DNA of 64,000 nt from Cirrosporium novae-zelandiae. Lineage: Eukaryota. A program made the position numbers and the translations under genes. Below are positions 5,580-38,105 of this stretch, one piece after another. Positions within the stretch are counted from its first letter, which is position 1; every line of letters starts with the position of its first letter. Below the pieces are notes generated by a model that did not search any database, was not told where the DNA came from, and saw only the letters and a program-made list of their open reading frames with translations. Location: positions 310,001 through 374,000 of the forward strand of contig JAPETS010000012.1 of assembly GCA_026023565.1 (NCBI GenBank), in the 5' to 3' direction.

Positions 5580-6834
5580 CAAGACTAAATTACATGATCC
5601 AATCATGTCCTTATCTCAAGGTGACGGTTTCACTCTTCTTTTCGCATTTACTTGGTCACAATTGCTAACCTTTCGAAAATGTTCATACAGTGTCTATCAT
5701 TTACTCCCTCAGCGTATCGCGCTTTCGCCCACTACTTTGCCTCATTGAGCTGATAACCATCTCTACGACAGTTTCTTCCCTCCTTATATTATAGTACGAC
5801 TCCTATCACTTGATATCTTCCAATTCTACTGGCAATAGGACTCAAGCAAACTTCGAAAGCATCGTGGATTTACCACGTAGATCTGGAGAGACATGAGGGG
5901 ATGCAATTGTGAAGAAATGTTTGAGCGAGGCATTGCTGCAAGTCATTAATGGCTTGACAATTACAAGTAAAGGTAGGGTCTGAGGACGTCAATAGCGGAA
6001 GCAGTATTGGAGATACAGAATAATCAGACAGCAACAGGCAGATGGCCCCGAAGAAATTGCGCCTCAAGACATAACTTTTTTTCCTCTAATGTTGGATTAA
6101 AGCATAATGGTAGCGTATGAAGTAAACATTGGTTATTGGGAATTTATAGGGGCTGAGGGAGGGTCGTATGTTTAAAGGTGTAGTCACTTAAAAATGAAAG
6201 CGACTATAAATCTAGAAAAGTGTCTTTGGGAAGGCTTTTCCAAGGTTATTTTTCTGGGTCTGGTCGCTTTCATTTTCATTTTTATCGAAAGGTATAATGC
6301 ATACAATGAGCTGATCTAACCTGTACAAACTAGAAAGTCATAATTATCGGTTTACGATATTGCAGATCACCTTAACGTTTTCCTCATGCACATGCAGGAG
6401 AGCTATAATATCAATGCTCGAGAGATTTTTCTTAACTTTTTGATGACTGCAATAAGTCGAGCTATGCTCAAACAAGGGATGAAGGCAGAGTGAGAGTTTT
6501 CTTATTTCCGAAGAAGGACTAATATATATCAACATATATCATAGAAGGAAGACTAACCAGTTAAGCTTTAGTCTTCCTTTACTTACTATAGATGATGTCC
6601 TAAATTTGCAGAAAGATTCTATACTCCTATCTTATAACCCGATCTTTAACATACAATATATAACCACGGATGTATTAGGTGATACTCTGATAAGAAATCC
6701 TACATTAAGTTATCCTAATCCTAACTATGGGCCCTAATGAATCAAGATTCATAGGATTCCCTCCTAGTGATTTGCTGAAAAGTGTTTTTGTCATACCACA
6801 TTTTCATTTGCTTCAAATGACATATTCTTTCCCA

Positions 6835-14246: not shown

Positions 14247-15445
14247 ACATTGGGATTTCTTTTTGAAAGTCGCTGATGTCCCTAAATTGTTCAAATTCCT
14301 TATTTTCAGTTTCTTTTTTCTTTCTTTTTAAAAAACGTATTATATCGTAGTTAATTGCTAAATAATGGTTTACAAGGGAAAAGTTCATAATATTACAAGT
14401 TTCTCATTCTACTCAGCAAAGAAAGATATAATACAGGAGATAACAGCTCCCTGCTACACAAATATTATTCTTTTTCAAGAGACGAAGTTCAACTTTCGCT
14501 CTAGCATAGTCTTAATGAAGCAGGGGAAAAGAATACATAGACTAGTATTGCCACAGTCTAGATAGATAGAGCAAGATAGAGCGGATTTTCTGAATTGACC
14601 CTGGACAAGTTTGGCATGAGCATAGCCTGAGCATAACATCAATAAGCATAATTTAGCTTGGTTAAGTTATGTAATTTATGCCTACGTCAAATTGTGCAAA
14701 ACTTAACCACCGGGGCATAACCCTAGGCTTGGTCTGGTGCCTAAAGCACTCGAATAAATATTTACAGTCATCTTTTGCCCTCGTTGATACTTGATGGAAA
14801 GAAGAGCATGACGTTTCTAGAGACTACCAGTTCATACTTGGAAGTTCAAGTCAAATAATAATGCATAACTGATTCCCTCCAACCAGGCTTATGATATCCT
14901 TGGGCCTCTTTTTCTTGAACCTCCTCTCCTACTTAGGTAGTCAAAACCACCTGCAAGAGATTGGAAGTCAAGAGAATGAATCAGAATATAGGCTGATACC
15001 GGCAACCCTCATCATGTGGCAAACTTACAGGGGAATCTCAAAAGTAATGTTCTACCGCCATAATTTGCTCAAACAAACACCTCAAGTTACTTCAACATCA
15101 GAGCAAGAATTTCCAACCCAGTTCATATAAAGCCTCAATGGACACTCAGCTGATTCATGTTGACAGCACTATCTTGGCTTTAACTCCTGTATTCCTATCT
15201 CTTAACCTTACATCTGTTATCTTCTCTCATTTCTTTGTCCAATCGGTATCTACACTGCTGGCTCCACTCACCGCTAGAAACTATAGCATCGCACAACTGT
15301 CGGGGGGTCCACACAGCAAGATAGGGTTCATCTTCAGACGTTGACACATACTCAGCAGACTCTAGCGTCTACCTGGATATTAAACCTAATTATCCTCACA
15401 ATAAAAGCCCTATAATGATCAAGAGACCTGAGGAGTCTGCCGTTC

Positions 15446-16930
15446 ATGATGTACACACAGCTCGAGGATGGTCTGAGATCTAAGTATCAATTTGACGAAG
15501 AAAAAGAAACGGCAGAAATTAACATTTCGACGATAAATACTTGTCTAAGCGAATCTGAGAATAACCCCCCATGTCCGACAATCGACCCAACAAACAACAC
15601 CAACACGACTGCTCTAAACGTCCTTAGCCTCGTTCGCGATGGCAGCACCATCCCCGACGAAGACCTCCGCTCCTTCATCCAAGGCATTGCATCGGGCACA
15701 GTCCCCGACTATCAAGCGGCTGCATTCCTAATGGCCGTGTACAACAAAGGCCTAAGTGACTCCTCCACCGCAACCCTAACACTCGCGATGCGTGATTCCG
15801 GCCAAGTCATCAACCTCTCCTCCATCCCAGGCATCAAAATAGACAAGCATTCCACGGGCGGCGTGGGGGACAAAATCTCCCTGGCCCTTGCCCCCTGGGT
15901 CGCCGCCTGCGGCATACCGGTCCCCATGATCAGCGGCCGCAGTCTCGGTCACACGGGTGGCACGCTCGACAAGTTAAGCTCTATCCCCGGCTTTCACGTC
16001 GACCTCTCCCTCCCCGAATTCTACTCGCAGATGAACAAAATCGGTGTAGCCATCATAGGGCAAACCACGGATCTAGCCCCCGCCGATAAAAAGCTTTACG
16101 CCCTCCGAGACGTCACCGCAACAATCGAATCCATCCCTCTCATCACCGCCTCTATCCTCTCCAAAAAACTAGCCGAGGGCATCGACTCTCTAGTTCTCGA
16201 CGTCAAAGTTGGCCGCGGGGCCTTCATGAAGGACCTCCCGCACGCACGCCAGCTAGCCTGGAGCCTCATCCGCGTGGGCTCCGCCGCCGGCATACGCGTC
16301 CGCGCCCTCCTGACCAACATGGACGCGCCCCTAGGAACCACAATCGGAAATGCCCTCGAGGTGCACGAGGCTATCGACATCCTGCACGGCCGCGGACCCC
16401 ATGACACAACCGAACTCACCCTCGCTCTAGCATCTGAAATGCTCGTCCTCGGCGGCGTGGCCCCCTCTCTCGAAGAAGCTCGAAAAAAACTCCTCGCCAT
16501 CCGCGATAGCGGCGCCGCCGCCTCAAAATTCGCAGCCCTAGTTGCAGCGCAAGGTGGAAATCCCGCTGTAGTCACCACCCCAGAGCTCATCTTACCCAAA
16601 TCCCGCTTTCGAACCCCTATCTACAGCGACGTCGTAGGCACAGTCACCGCCATCGACGCGCTGGACATTGCAGCCGTCGCTGCGCGTCTCGGCGCCGGTC
16701 ACATGCGCACAGACGACATCATCGATCCGGCCGTGGGAGTCACACTCCGCAGGACCATTAATACGACTGTGAAACAGAATAGTGAGTTAGCGGTTTTACA
16801 TCATAATGCCCCTTTGCCGGCAGATGCTATCTCGGTTGTTCGGAAGGCGTTTGTGATTAATAATAATGATAATGATAACGCGGCTGAAAGGGTGGAAGTG
16901 AAATCTTTGGTTTTGGAGACGTTGGGGTAG
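15446..16930 (+). CDS. Thymidine / pyrimidine-nucleoside phosphorylase (DeoA/Pdp family), intronless
   Basis: DKHSTGGVGDK, PMISGRSLGHTGGTLDKL, APADKKLYALRDVTAT, ITASILSKKLAEG, LVLDVKVGRGAFMK, GNALEV, LGAG...ID.AVG. All family motifs are present in one uninterrupted ORF. Confidence 0.95.
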   Translation: MMYTQLEDGLRSKYQFDEEKETAEINISTINTCLSESENNPPCPTIDPTNNTNTTALNVLSLVRDGSTIPDEDLRSFIQGIASGTVPDYQAAAFLMAVYNKGLSDSSTATLTLAMRDSGQVINLSSIPGIKIDKHSTGGVGDKISLALAPWVAACGIPVPMISGRSLGHTGGTLDKLSSIPGFHVDLSLPEFYSQMNKIGVAIIGQTTDLAPADKKLYALRDVTATIESIPLITASILSKKLAEGIDSLVLDVKVGRGAFMKDLPHARQLAWSLIRVGSAAGIRVRALLTNMDAPLGTTIGNALEVHEAIDILHGRGPHDTTELTLALASEMLVLGGVAPSLEEARKKLLAIRDSGAAASKFAALVAAQGGNPAVVTTPELILPKSRFRTPIYSDVVGTVTAIDALDIAAVAARLGAGHMRTDDIIDPAVGVTLRRTINTTVKQNSELAVLHHNAPLPADAISVVRKAFVINNNDNDNAAERVEVKSLVLETLG

Positions 16931-17552
16931 TTTTGGCTGGGGGTGCGATACGATAGGTAGATAGAGAGATGGATAGATAGATAGACAGGGGGCTAGATGG
17001 TATTGGACTATTAGGCTAATGGTGCATTCAGCATTCAGCATTCAGCACACAACTAGGCAACAAGCAACACGTAAATTCCGAATTCAGATTAGAAAATCTT
17101 TTGGTATACTATAAAAGTATATATCTACCTACATTGTATTTATGTTTGTAAATAGACTATATACTATCAGGGGTGGGGGGGGGGGGTGGATGGATAGGAT
17201 AGATAAGATGGATAAAATGATTATTATTTTCATAATTTAATTGGAATTGTGTACAAGTTATTGTCAAGGAATCAGCTATGCCTAAGCTCCCAGACCAAAA
17301 GAACGTGGATACCCGCTAGCCAACGAGTGATCTAGAATAGCTTATATAACCTGGGCTGCGCCCTCACAGTTATGATGTGCATGCGCGGTTGGTAAAAAGC
17401 ATAGAATAAAACCCCCCAAAGTTACATTGTAGCCAGTTATCCTATATTTCTAGCTACGCGTTATATATATAACGTCACGATCTCGAGGTTCCATCCAATT
17501 TATCCTCACATAAGTAACACCACACCACGTCACAAAAAATCATCAATCCAAT

Positions 17553-22619: not shown

Positions 22620-24014
22620 ATGTGGACTTTCATTCTTTTGACAACAGCCCTTTTAGGGCCCAGAGCTTATGCCCTTCCTACAGCAAGTGTAGCATCTCCC
22701 ACTACAGCTGCAGCTTCTTCCGTGACTGCAGCAGCTACTTCCAGCAACCCTTTCTCGGGAGTTCAGCTCTATGCGAATCCACACTATTCATCCGAAATCT
22801 ATACATCTGCGATTCCTTCTCTGACGGCCTCCTTGACTAGCAAAGCGAGCGCGGCTGCGGAAGTTGGAACATTCTTCTGGCTGTAAGTATCTTGCAAGTC
22901 ACACGCAAGAATGATGACTGAGCTGTTCAGAGATGCCGTTGACAAGGTTCCAACAATGGGCACCTATCTAAACAATATCAAGACCAAAAATGCTGCTGGT
23001 GCAAATCCTCCCATCGCTGGCACTTTTGTTGTCTATGACCTTCCAGATCGCGATTGCGCCGCATTGGCATCAAATGGAGAGTTTTCTGTAGATGACGGCG
23101 GGGTCGCCAACTACAAGGCCTACATTGACAAGATCCACACTCAGCTGGTGAAATACTCCGACATAAAAACAATTCTTGTTTATGGTTCGTTATAGCCTCC
23201 CTCCACGAAGCTGATCGAACCACCCGCTAACACAAGATCCAAAACCTATATTAGAACCCGACAGCTTCGGAAATCTAGTTACAAACCTCAACGTCGCCAA
23301 ATGTGCTGAAGCCGAATCCGCATACTACGAATGCTTCAAATACGCCCTCACGACCCTGAACCTCGACAACGTCTCCATCTACCTGGATGCCGGCCACGCC
23401 GGCTGGCTAGGCTGGGCCGCAAACCTGCAACCAGCAGCCACGCTCTTCGCTCAGATCTACAAGAACGCATCGAGCCCAGCCGCAGTCAGGGGATTAGCAA
23501 CAAACGTCGCAAACTACAATGCGTGGAGCATCGACACATGTCCCAGCTACACATCTGGCAACGAAAATTGCGACGAAAAGAAGTATGTCACCGCACTGGC
23601 GCCGCTGCTAGAAGCCGCAGGCTTCCCAGCCCACTTCATCACGGACACCGGTAAGTTCAACCCCATCCCCCAACCCAACTCAGCCCAGCCAAACTCAAAA
23701 ATCTAACCCCCACCTCCATCCCCGCAGGCCGAAACGGCGCACAACCAACTGCCCAAACCGCCTGGGGCGACTGGTGCAACGTAAAGTCTACCGGCCTAGG
23801 CAAACGCCCCACGACAGCCACAAACTCAACCCTCGAAGATGCCTTCGTGTGGGTGAAACCCCCCGCCGAATCCGACGGCACCTCGAATTCCTCGTCGGCA
23901 AGATACGACGCACACTGCGGATATAGTGATGCGCTGACGCCGGCGCCCGAGGCGGGGACGTGGTTTCAGGCTTACTTCGAACAGCTTTTAGAAAATGCCG
24001 ATGCTTCGTTTTAG
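22620..24014 (+). CDS. Glycoside hydrolase family 6 cellobiohydrolase (Cel6/CBH II-like) lacking CBM1
   Basis: Signal peptide, Ser/Thr/Ala linker, NPFSGVQLYAN, VVYDLPDRDCAALASNGE, EPDS, YLDAGHAGWLGW, ATNVANYN, WGDWCNV, FVWVKPPAESDG, APEAGTWFQAYF. Three introns; stop TAG at 24012-24014. Confidence 0.95.
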
Positions 24015-29832: not shown

Positions 29833-32350
29833 CCTTTTCACAAATCTTTTAACGAATCATATATCTAAATCTATAGGTAGGTCCCCCCAAGTAAATCTGT
29901 TCTGTAACCAATAATTATATTCCCTCTCTTTTTCAAAACCCGGCCAGGGATGATAGATATGCCGAGACCATGACATTCGGTGGGTGGGGAAGAGAGGGAA
30001 ATTTTTTTAATAGGTAGGTAGGTAGGTTGGTAGGGAAAGTTATCTTATCTTATCATTTCCGATTGGATATGGATATGATAATGCTCCACAGTACTCGAGT
30101 ATGTATGTCCAGTATGTATGTACAGTATGTATGAAACAACCAACCAAGGAGTAACGAATAACGAATCAATAAAAAGACGAATTCTTCTTTTCTTTATTTT
30201 ATTTTTTCTCTCGTGCACACGTATACACATATATACATAGAACATAGAACATGGAATATGGAAATTGTTAAATACCGAATACTACAGGAATGTAAATATG
30301 TAAAGATGGATAGGGGGGATATGGATATCTTATCTTATCTCAAGATTATCTCGCACGTGTTGATCGAGGGTTAGTTAGTTCGGGGTTTGGGGTTTGGGTT
30401 ATATATTCTTGATGGGTATGGAAGGGAAGTTATGTGTGTATATGTACATGTATATGTGTATACCATGATGTTCATTTTTTATTCGTCTATCCCGTTGGTT
30501 AGGCCCGGGCCAGTTGGGGTGGGGGGTGAGATATTGTACTGTACAGCGGCATATAGATGAGCGAACGTCCAAGTATTTCTATTCCTGCTTCTGCTTGTAC
30601 CGTACTTAGGGTTTCATCCCCACATTCCCTAGTTATCCCCCCCCCCCCACTCACGGATGATAAACTACTAACCAACCAGCCAACCAACCAAGAACGAAGA
30701 AGCAAACAAATCTAGATTTAGCTCTAGATATTTTTATCTCGAAGCTCATATGGCTAGCTGTCTATCTATCTGTCTATCTCTCTCTCTCTTTTTTTTTCTA
30801 TGGCTATTTTATCTTGCTATCCATTCCCGGAATTGATACATGTGGATATAAAATCGCCTTTGGTTTTGGGGTTTGGGTTTATATATGTATGGAAGGGGAG
30901 GGAGATGAGGAGGAAGAAAGCGGTGTAATGAAACCCTTTAAGGCTATTACGTTACATAATATAGTTTATAGATGGACCTAGAGATTTCTGAATCTTGGGT
31001 CCTAAAAGAAATGATAGTGGATAGATAGATAGTTGAGATGAATGAGCGTGTATATGATATCTCGAATCTGAGGTAGTTCTATTGCGTATGTATTGTGTAT
31101 ATCCCATACCCCATCTCTCTCCCCACCTGAATATATTTATCTCGCCCCTTCATCACTAACCTAATGATCTAATATACTCTGGATCCAACCCAACTCAATC
31201 TGCCCTCAAAACATGGGATGTGTTTTGGTGTGTTCTATTCCTTGGTTTTTGTATTTTGGGGAAGAGATGGTAAGTATGGCGAGGAAGGAATGAAGGAAAT
31301 GTGGATGCTGTGGTTGTTATGTATAAGAATTTGGGGTCGCGGGTATGTCGAGAGCTGAGGATGGATAAAGTTGTAGGTAGGTGGGTGATTAGTTATCTAT
31401 GTATCTAACCTTTTTAGCCTTTCTCTCACTTCCTCTCATTGTCTGAGTGAGGCTTTTTGTTCATGGTTAATTAGTATTAGGTGCAATGATGAATTCAAAT
31501 GATAATAAACAAGGCCAAAGGGTAGGTACATGATTGCTTCTTTTCAAAAAATTTTATTTAGTTGGTCTAGCTAGCCAGAAATAAGGGGGAGAGGTGGAAA
31601 TACTTTGTTGTTGGTGTGAGGGGTGTGAACGAGAGTGGAAGGTTCGTTTGAGATGGGGTGGATATGTGAGATGCGACGCGTATGGGTAAAGGGGGTTGGA
31701 TGTGTACCTACCTCTACGTATGCGTCCTTCAAGGTTTGGTGAATTGGACGGCTGATGAAGGTGTACTGAGAGAGACTCTTCATCTGATTTCACGTTTAGG
31801 GATGGGGTTGTCAGAGATGTTGGATGAGGAGCTAAGAATGTTTCTAACAGAAAGGGTAGAGTTTAATGTGTATGCATGGGAGATCGGACCCACGCTGTAT
31901 GTAGAGAAGAAATTAAAGACCTACCTACCTGTGCTGGGGAGAACTTGATCTTATCTCCACCAGAGATGGTGAGGGCCCCAGCCAGGGTTGAGGAAAAGAG
32001 AATGTATCATCTATGAGTTGAACTGATGGCTTTGAGCTTAAGGTATTTCAGCTTGTGTTGATGAGATAAGGAGAAACCCGAAGATCTAGAAAGTGAAAAC
32101 GAAATGCATGGCCTGTGAATCGAACTGCTGCCCTTGAGTTTAAGGTGTTTTGAGCTTGTGTTGGAATGATTAGGGTGAGTTGAGGAGGACTACATTTAGA
32201 CAAATTCCGAGTATCATCAGTCCCAACTCCTATACTCTTCTCCCAACCAATTCCCTCAAAATAATCTCTCTCTACTCTGCAATTGCGTATTCAAAAACGA
32301 GTACCTGCCTACCTCCATTAATAAAATAATAATAATAATAATAGAATAGC

Positions 32351-32563
32351 AAAAAAGATAGACAGGCTGGGGCCAGCGCTAGACGCTTAGGGAAAGAGGA
32401 CACTCGGAACTTGGAAGGCTCTAGACGGCTTACCCACTGCGCCCTGTTGTCTCCAACACGGCTCTAAATCAAGCCCTGGCGGGTATACACCTCGACCAAG
32501 TCTTATCCCGCTAGACCAGTGGACCTTTCGGTGGCTGGGACGCTATTCCCCAACCTGTCTGTG
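32351..32563 (-). ncRNA. Putative ~200-nt structured non-coding RNA gene (five-way junction, Pol III-like architecture), family unidentified
   Basis: 13-bp terminal helix AGACAGGUUGGGG/CCCCAGCCUGUCU and four internal hairpins joined by 0-2 nt linkers. Two hairpins are capped by GAAA and GAGA. A T6 run follows the 3' helix and a TATA-rich tract lies ~15-30 nt upstream. No ORF. Confidence 0.7.
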
Positions 32564-32695
32564 ATTGGCCCTGTTATAATATAATATATACCTACCCTCC
32601 GAGACTGGTGCACCCTCACCTGATTGATTGAGATTAGATTAGGGATACCATCTCAACAAGCACCTCTCTTCCCATCAACCACAGCCACTCGTAGC

Positions 32696-35928: not shown

Positions 35929-38105
35929 ATAAATGAATTCTTATAGTAGTAAGGGTGGGATGGGATAGACATGGGTATGGGTACAGCAGGTATGGGGAGG
36001 AGGAGGGAAGAAATACGATAATCTTATTTCCCCCCATTTCTTGTATGCGTGCCACACCCATTTCGAATGAATAAAAAAAAGAAATGAATATGTTAACACA
36101 GTAGTATAATGATAACGGTAATGAAGAATACCGATCATACATACCTAAATACCTACCCATATGCACATACACATACATACCCACACTTCCCCAAACCCAA
36201 AATCCGAAAGCCGGAGCCGGAGCCAGAGCAAGAGCCGAGACCAGGGACATGGACATCCCATACCCATGCCCATGCCCAGAATCATGTTATCATCAACCAA
36301 ATACCAAATACCCAAATACTTAAATACCCATATATACATAATAGTTACCAACCAACCATACTCATCCAATACTTTTTTCCCCTTCCCTCCTTCCCCGAAT
36401 ACGAATAAGAATACGAAAACAATTATGTGATTATCCAATAGTTAGATAGATGTTGGTATACATGCATGCATGCATAGCACTTGATGGAGTTGTTGGGGTT
36501 GTTGGGGGTTGGATAGCATGTACCGCATATACCATACCATATACTATATCCATCCATCTAGTCATGATACACAATACACACACAATAAAATAAATAAATA
36601 TATAGGGTGTATGTGTATATATATAGAGACAAAGAAAGAGAGCAATCACTCGTATAGACTAATCAATTAAGTAGATCGACACCTCCACCTCCCCCTCCAC
36701 AATGGACCGGGGTTGGGGTGGGGGGAGAGGGGACCAAGGACTTAACTTGGTGATTTGGAAAAACAATTCATACCTTTTTCTTCTCTTGCTCGTTTATATC
36801 GGGGTTTATTTGGTTGGTTGATTGGTTGGTTATATATACAGACAGACATAGCGATACATATATATTGACTCGTAATTTGTGTTGGTTGGTTCCGAATAAA
36901 TAACCATGTAACGAATCGTTAATTAAGTCAACCTGTATATAACAAGACAATTACAATACAATATAATACAGTACATAGAATAGTCAAAGTATCTAAACAC
37001 TTAAAAACTAATCAACTAAAATAATTAATTAGATAACTGCTTCAACGATTAATTAATTAATTACCCAAATCCATCTATTTGCATTTTTTTTATATTCATC
37101 ACTTAATTTCTCTCTTTCTCTCTGTATATGGAATATTCTCTGATAAATCCCTAGAAAAAAATCTTTCACGTGGGTGGGTGCATGCATACTGGAGATCGTT
37201 ATGTGGGGTATGTGGGAACACTGGCAAATACAGTACTGATGATAATTAATAGGTGTTAATGCGCTGGGGTTTCTGGTTCTCTTCGTTTCGTGTTGATCAA
37301 TTTCATAAGGGTGGAGTTTGATACCATAGGACTTAGGACTCAAGACCATTAATGAAACTGAGCTGTGATCCTTTTTTTTGTTAGGATGGAGGGGCTCGTC
37401 GAAGGGTATATACCGTATACAGGCCATGGCGGAATATATTCTGGTTTATTATCTCTCTTCAGTCACCACCTGTCGACTAGTCTTGGCCATCGAGGAGTAT
37501 TGATAGTGTTCACAAACATTGTGTATTCTCTGCGTTTTTGTTGGTCCTTCATTCTTGGGATACTGTTGGCGGCTGGATAGTTGGCTGGTTGGTGGAGATT
37601 GATTGGGCGATTTGAATCGTTTGATGGGATGTGTATCAAAGAGCCCCTGGAAATAAAATTGCCTCTATGGATTTATAAGGACTTTGACGCGTCACGTCTT
37701 TCTAGAAGGAGGCAAGTATAGTCTTACTACCATAAGCGGGTGGTGGTGTAATGTGATCGCAGAGAAAACAACAACATTTCCCCTCTTCTCAATTCCAAGG
37801 TAGCATTGAGGTGACTGCAAATATCGAAAGAATATGACTGATCATTCCTTACAAACCCGATTTTTCAATAAAGGCTCATGGCTTGAGGTACTAATGTGGT
37901 ACTAAACAATAATACTCTGTGGAACTTCTTGGTGTCTTGGGTCACGGAACGAATGGACCGGACGTCCCTGGCGTTTGGTTTTCCGTAGTGTGTAGTTAAG
38001 CATTCCCTTCTGGTCTATGAAGATTTGCTTTGTTTCTGACTTTCATAATATTAGAGCCGGGTTTCTAACCTCCGATTTATCACGTCCAAACAAGCTTCCA
38101 GGGTT

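Follow-up and report, generated by a model that had tools for sequence, protein, structure and literature searches.

The window analysed here, a stretch of 64,000 nucleotides, derives from a metagenome-assembled genome (MAG) of Cirrosporium novae-zelandiae, a member of Xylobotryomycetes, a small class, according to the NCBI taxonomy. Its content is fungal, with a transcription factor of the Fungal_trans_2 family as well as other typical genes. On the plus strand, a GH6 (cellulase-type) gene of at least three exons is found at 22.6-24.0 kb (22887-24014), and further multi-exon genes encode a ubiquitin-like protein (26.1 kb), a methyltransferase (27.7-28.2 kb), an alpha/beta hydrolase (34.8-35.3 kb) and the transcription factor itself (38.1-39.4 kb). 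Among those listed, the nearest relatives of the latter are only 47% identical, which makes the existence of a close genome unlikely. Nearer to the start of the window, at 15419-16930 on the plus strand, lies an intron-less gene for a pyrimidine-nucleoside/thymidine phosphorylase of 503 amino acids. Its best relatives, the protein itself excluded, are 53-66% identical, and those relatives among the 120 listed that carry an organism name all belong to Myxococcota, to Deltaproteobacteria or to a Myxococcales MAG; this gene is a possible case of transfer from a bacterium to a fungus.

Between about 29.1 and 34.6 kb, the window contains no gene recognisable by Pfam and no open reading frame of at least 90 amino acids with a family match. 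A previous interpretation of this DNA, referred to here as the sequence-only reading, had described a 5-kb stretch devoid of intact protein genes, and this description holds, as nothing coding was recognised in the interval. Tetranucleotide microsatellites at 30747-31032 and 16959-16999 form inverted repeats with one another, and tracts of this kind show that simple repeats abound in the gene-free stretch.

Within this stretch resides the subject of our analysis, a unit of 201 nucleotides on the minus strand (32560-32360 of the window) with a GC content of about 57%, located in a fungal intergenic region. Its two ends are complementary: the first 13 bases (32560-32548) pair with the last 13 (32372-32360) through 12 Watson-Crick pairs and one G-U pair, yielding the closing helix P1. 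Beyond a bulge of two nucleotides on the 5' side and one on the 3' side, a second closing helix, P2, is formed by five base pairs between 32545-32541 and 32378-32374, one of them being U-G. Enclosed by these helices are four hairpin regions. H1 (32538-32516) consists of a 4-bp stem, an internal loop and a 3-bp stem capped by a GNRA tetraloop (32529-32526), and H2 (32514-32476) of a stem of eight positions with one A-C mismatch and a large loop, in which the minimum-free-energy (MFE) structure places a small inner hairpin. H3 (32475-32427) includes a 5-bp stem with the second GNRA tetraloop (32453-32450); in the model of the sequence-only reading it is a single long interrupted hairpin, whereas in the MFE structure it is divided into two short hairpins and one strand of a longer helix. 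H4 (32424-32379) is an interrupted hairpin in that model and is paired otherwise in the MFE structure.

Upstream of the unit lies a TATA-rich 17-mer (32590-32574), a candidate TFIIIB/TBP site whose first T is 30 nucleotides upstream of the first helix base, the A at 32560, which is also the predicted start of the transcript. Downstream, three nucleotides past the helix, a run of six T (T6; 32356-32351) represents a candidate Pol III terminator that would leave an oligo-U tail at the 3' end, and directly beyond it, in the flank and outside the RNA, an AT-rich trinucleotide microsatellite with a GC content of 10% extends from 32350 to 32312. All motifs listed by the sequence-only reading were recovered at their places, including the T6 run three nucleotides after the helix and the TATA-rich 17-mer. 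In bins of 40 nucleotides, the GC content amounts to 55-62% throughout the unit and falls to 10% in the adjoining downstream bin and to 35% in the adjoining upstream bin, so that unit and helix share their boundaries.

Several features distinguish the two strands from each other and speak for the minus strand. On this strand, which carries the T6 run, the wobbles of both closing stems are G-U pairs; in the plus-strand orientation, the one in P1 would turn into a C-A mismatch. Likewise, both tetraloops read as GNRA on the minus strand only, and the MFE is lower there (-84.6 kcal/mol) than on the plus strand (-79.1 kcal/mol). Conversely, the A-C mismatch in the stem of H2 would be a G-U pair on the plus strand. 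These RNA-like, strand-specific features, and the layout to which they belong, are direct observations.

How improbable is such an arrangement? Helices of at least 13 bp, with at most one G-U pair and closing 40-400 nucleotides, are no rarity in the 64-kb window, with nine instances on the plus and six on the minus strand; T runs of at least T6 and TATA-like words each occur 45 times on its minus strand. Among these comparable helices, however, only that of the candidate is accompanied by a T6 run within 5 nucleotides and by an upstream TATA word. The real window contains this combination once and none of 150 block-shuffled windows contains it, by thresholds chosen after the candidate had been seen; three of the 150 contain the helix with T6 if the TATA condition is dropped. 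Comparably, when the interior was shuffled 600 times, two GNRA tetraloops on stems of at least 3 bp were reached once, and a single one 23 times. Thus, the layout resembling that of a Pol III gene, as claimed by the sequence-only reading, is real and unlikely to be accidental. By our own rough estimate of about 0.5% per window, a few such layouts would nonetheless arise by chance in a genome of 36 Mb.

The stability of the fold presents a divided picture. As a whole, the unit folds on the minus strand with about -85 kcal/mol (-84.6 to -85.4), corresponding to a z-score of -3.33 (0 of 200 shuffles) or -3.49 (0 of 300), and on the plus strand with about -80 kcal/mol (-79.1 to -80.4), corresponding to a z-score of -3.06 (2 of 200 shuffles). 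Without the 13-bp closing helix, however, the remaining interior of 175 nucleotides has a z-score of only -0.38, with 100 of 300 shuffles folding as well, which attributes the excess in energy entirely to the closing helix; without both closing stems, the z-score is +0.21. Accordingly, the interior shows no excess of paired bases over shuffles, 256 of 600 of which reach its count. When both strands of the entire 64 kb were scanned as 3,190 windows of 205 nucleotides each, the candidate ranked 40th in composition-corrected stability and 13th with a correction for GC content alone. Written as dot-bracket notation, the hairpin model of the sequence-only reading is consistent in itself, as all of its 58 pairs are standard pairs, including two G-U pairs that both fall into the closing stems; with -73.7 kcal/mol it is 11 kcal/mol worse than the MFE structure, which arranges H3 and H4 differently. 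The two long-range pairings that had been proposed in addition, one of them as a pseudoknot, do not exceed what shuffles provide, with two helices of at least 7 bp observed against a mean of 2.26, and one of at least 8 bp against 1.5. With both the interior and the long-range pairings at chance level, the proposed five-way junction and pseudoknot are possible drawings rather than findings, both being devoid of statistical backing outside the closing stem and the pair of GNRA loops. The claim of an exceptional structure depends on this stem and these loops only, and the description as highly structured holds in part, but not for the folding energy of the interior.

The same scan drew attention to two other sites. 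At 6189-6278, a near-perfect inverted repeat of 16 bp, present on both strands, encloses about 55 nucleotides; on the plus strand, the windows of 205 nucleotides that surround it (6081-6365) reach z-scores of about -4 and thereby belong to the most stable ones in the 64 kb. The most stable window of all, on the minus strand with a z-score of -4.6, falls into 35961-36274, directly downstream of the alpha/beta-hydrolase exons, where a short tandem motif forms a 14-bp inverted repeat spanning about 300 nucleotides.

An affiliation of the unit with established RNA families is not apparent. The 4,227 covariance models of Rfam 15, which include RNase P, RNase MRP, SRP, snRNAs, snoRNAs, Y and vault RNAs, ribozymes and rRNA, gave no match at gathering score anywhere in the window, and hence none that would remove the novelty of the unit. 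At E <=10, queries of 451 and 215 bases returned two chance matches only, one to a Pseudomonas sRNA inside the microsatellite (11.4 bits) and one, on the plus strand, to a frameshift signal (12.7 bits). Identities as SRP, Y, vault, snoRNA or snRNA were rejected, as no Rfam model for them matches, and layouts of the box C/D, H/ACA or Sm-site type are absent as judged by reading against their characteristic motifs. ARAGORN detected no tRNA gene in the window, and inspection by reading yielded no convincing internal A or B box, the best look-alikes matching about half of the consensus positions; a tRNA or tRNA-derived SINE was discarded on these grounds. The statement of the sequence-only reading that hallmarks of known RNA classes are missing is thereby borne out by Rfam and ARAGORN alike. 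Moreover, the literature searched yielded no printed description of the RNA, and six short pieces of the unit, compared with published text, produced only three chance matches, all in unrelated papers.

The unit is present in a single copy in the sequences searched. In the assembly of the one sequencing run found to contain it, which is the probable source, only one of 157,048 contigs (35.7 Mb) matches it at a likeness of at least 80%, and this contig of 7.8 kb runs unbroken through the unit. Within the 64 kb, no second copy but only the unit itself was returned by blastn, by a search for repeats and by a covariance model derived from it, and two other runs of the same study, from other organisms, contained no match at 80% likeness. 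A dispersed SINE or MITE, which the sequence-only reading had named as the finding that would undo its proposal, was rejected on the basis of these searches, and a target-site duplication is missing as well. Pattern scans were extended to metagenome contigs, with a two-part pattern (32529-32516 and 32439-32429) and with a purine/pyrimidine-coded pattern around a 14-base core, and to prokaryote genome contigs; none of the three produced a match, yet such scans detect near-exact relatives only and thus say little on distant relatives or on conservation.

What, then, could be the nature of this unit? Our preferred explanation, to which we assign a probability of roughly 0.45, is a small RNA gene that founds a new family, is single-copy and restricted to its lineage, and is transcribed by Pol III from the upstream TATA element. 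In this scenario, TBP/TFIIIB would bind to the TATA-rich stretch at -30, and transcription would begin at A 32560 and stop in the T6 run, releasing an RNA of about 204-208 nucleotides. The ends of this RNA would pair into the 13-bp and 5-bp stem with a short oligo-U overhang at the 3' side, a form that would be bound by La and shielded from exonucleases, and the interior hairpins, two of them GNRA-capped, may provide a small RNP with modules for protein binding or for tertiary contacts. Here we infer transcription itself, the polymerase, both ends, the binding of La and any RNP or function from the arrangement of the DNA, and the case is a lead from a single sequence. The suggestion of a new class of ribozymes or RNP scaffolds, as put forward by the sequence-only reading, exceeds the evidence.

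Alternatively, the constellation may have no product and no function at all, being a chance encounter of a GC-rich intergenic stretch and a 13-bp inverted repeat with an AT-rich microsatellite and a TA-rich tract. The interior that folds like its shuffles, the pseudoknot candidates at chance level, the abundance of comparable helices (15 in 64 kb), T runs and TATA-like words, and the modest stability rank all fit such an accident, all the more as the tests were performed post hoc on a feature selected from a very large scan. Yet it would have to assemble what not one shuffled window assembled, provide two GNRA-capped hairpins besides, have the GC content change at both ends of the helix, and place both stem wobbles on the strand of the T6 run, and we regard it as less likely than a gene, but as a serious rival. 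A product of a different kind would result if the unit were part of a longer Pol II transcript, lying in a lncRNA or in an untranslated region of a gene that escaped recognition, with the closing stem acting as a cis-regulatory or stability element. Table 1 of PMC8216456 lists conserved structures of 85-170 nucleotides in untranslated regions of fungi, and the absence of recognised genes from the surrounding 5.5 kb makes unannotated transcripts possible; however, the recognised genes closest to the unit are at least 2 kb away, those on the same strand at least 3 kb, a Pol II transcript would contain the T6 run along with the long AT-rich microsatellite, and the spacing of the TATA element suits a start at the helix, all of which renders this origin quite improbable.

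Two further explanations concern the ancestry of the unit. With inverted repeats of 13 bp and one mismatch at its very ends, it has the termini expected of a MITE, and as a discrete element of 201 bp with a second, 5-bp repeat and sharp GC boundaries, situated in a gene-free, microsatellite-rich stretch of 5.5 kb, it could be what remains of a small mobile element or foldback element after its insertion into AT-rich surroundings; the signals resembling those of a Pol III gene would then merely belong to the AT-rich target. We deem both the insertion and this view of the signals improbable, though still a serious rival, as the repeats are not abutted by a target-site duplication of 2-10 bp, the flanking bases differ, 249 of 1,000 shuffles yield a direct repeat as good as the best one in the flanks, which is thus not significant, no transposase remnants were found nearby, and at 80% likeness or above the element is alone in both the assembly and the window; the GNRA loops would be left unexplained. 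A strongly reduced relative of RNase P/MRP RNA, in turn, would have P1 and P2 as its closing helices, a CR-I-like stretch (32529-32516) pairing with 32439-32430 as a P4-like pseudoknot, and a P19-like hairpin ahead of the 3' strands. The purine-rich stretch of H1 and a stretch in H3 indeed offer 8 bp of complementarity, including two G-U pairs, but while one such pairing is observed, the mean in shuffles is 1.5, and 163 of 200 shuffles reach equal quality. Moreover, the bulged U expected in the P4 pairing of RNase P/MRP is absent, and the consensus positions are only partly matched. The P3 hairpin is missing between P2 and the CR-I-like stretch, which lies only 11 nucleotides from the 5' strand of P2, and if H1 is taken as P3 instead, no CR-I-like stretch follows it. 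The order of elements, from P1, P2 and the CR-I-like stretch through middle hairpins, a complementary 3' stretch and a hairpin to the 3' strands of P2 and P1, does resemble the topology of the catalytic domain as laid out in PMC13184271. According to the same paper, RNase MRP RNA is marked by a P8 pentaloop GARAR, a CR-IV of six nucleotides and a 3-bp P5 beside CR-I, whereas the purine loops of the unit are GNRA loops of four nucleotides, and neither a 6-nt nor an 8-nt CR-IV is recognisable, none being seen by reading before the 3' pairing partner. As in addition no covariance model of RNase P or MRP matches the unit, even at E <=10, membership was rejected; what the unit shares with the catalytic domain is a P1/P2-like closure, a purine-rich stretch with a downstream partner and a hairpin before the 3' closing strands, a remote resemblance from which P3, CR-IV, the GARAR loop, the bulged U and the covariance match are all missing, so that even a strongly reduced relationship seems very improbable.

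Returning to a Pol III-transcribed gene as the preferred reading, we tentatively propose a new family of structured small Pol III RNAs that is founded by this unit and distinct from U6, SRP, RNase P/MRP, Y and vault RNAs. With the same reservation, the RNA might constitute the core of a small RNP in Xylobotryomycetes, and possibly more widely in Pezizomycotina. To our knowledge, the Pol III products of fungi beyond tRNA and 5S are thought to be few, comprising U6, SRP RNA and RNase P RNA, and in some fungi RNase MRP RNA. If our reading is true, fungal cell biology would gain a new RNP through one more Pol III RNA, about 205 nucleotides long and combining a closed stem with GNRA loops, and poorly sampled fungal classes would contain RNA genes that family libraries have overlooked.

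Among known systems, the TATA-dependent Pol III genes of fungi for U6 snRNA, the 7SL RNA of SRP and RNase P RNA are among the closest in their layout. Like the unit, they have a TATA-rich element about 30 nucleotides upstream, a purine start and a T-run terminator directly after a structured RNA, and they are GC-rich within AT-rich flanks; a TATA element near -30 together with a 3' T run, by which such genes are recognised, is present in the unit. PMC10137851 and PMC7279448 likewise describe Pol III genes with TATA-like boxes at -31/-24. In contrast to these fungal genes, the unit has no match in Rfam 15 and no convincing A or B box. Y and vault RNAs are panhandle RNAs transcribed by Pol III, with paired ends and a 3' oligo-U tail. 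The predicted RNA would share with them the pairing of its ends in a long stem, the oligo-U tail and the size class of small cytoplasmic RNP RNAs; the unit is, however, about twice as long, has an uninterrupted closing helix and matches neither family in Rfam. In Y RNAs, it is a bulged helix that is bound by Ro60, and a helix of this type is not found in the unit. Fungal genomes have been screened for conserved structures before, as evident from PMC8216456 and PMC5640933, and the former contains a possible counterpart from Pezizomycotina, 'Intergenic structure 2' (Gao, Jones & Rivas, 2021). There it is given an average length of 144 nucleotides, against about 205 for our unit, and a function that is not known, and the comparison is one by description, in which identity is neither shown nor excluded. 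By this description, 'Intergenic structure 2' and our unit are both stand-alone, single-copy candidates for structured RNAs in the intergenic regions of Pezizomycotina.
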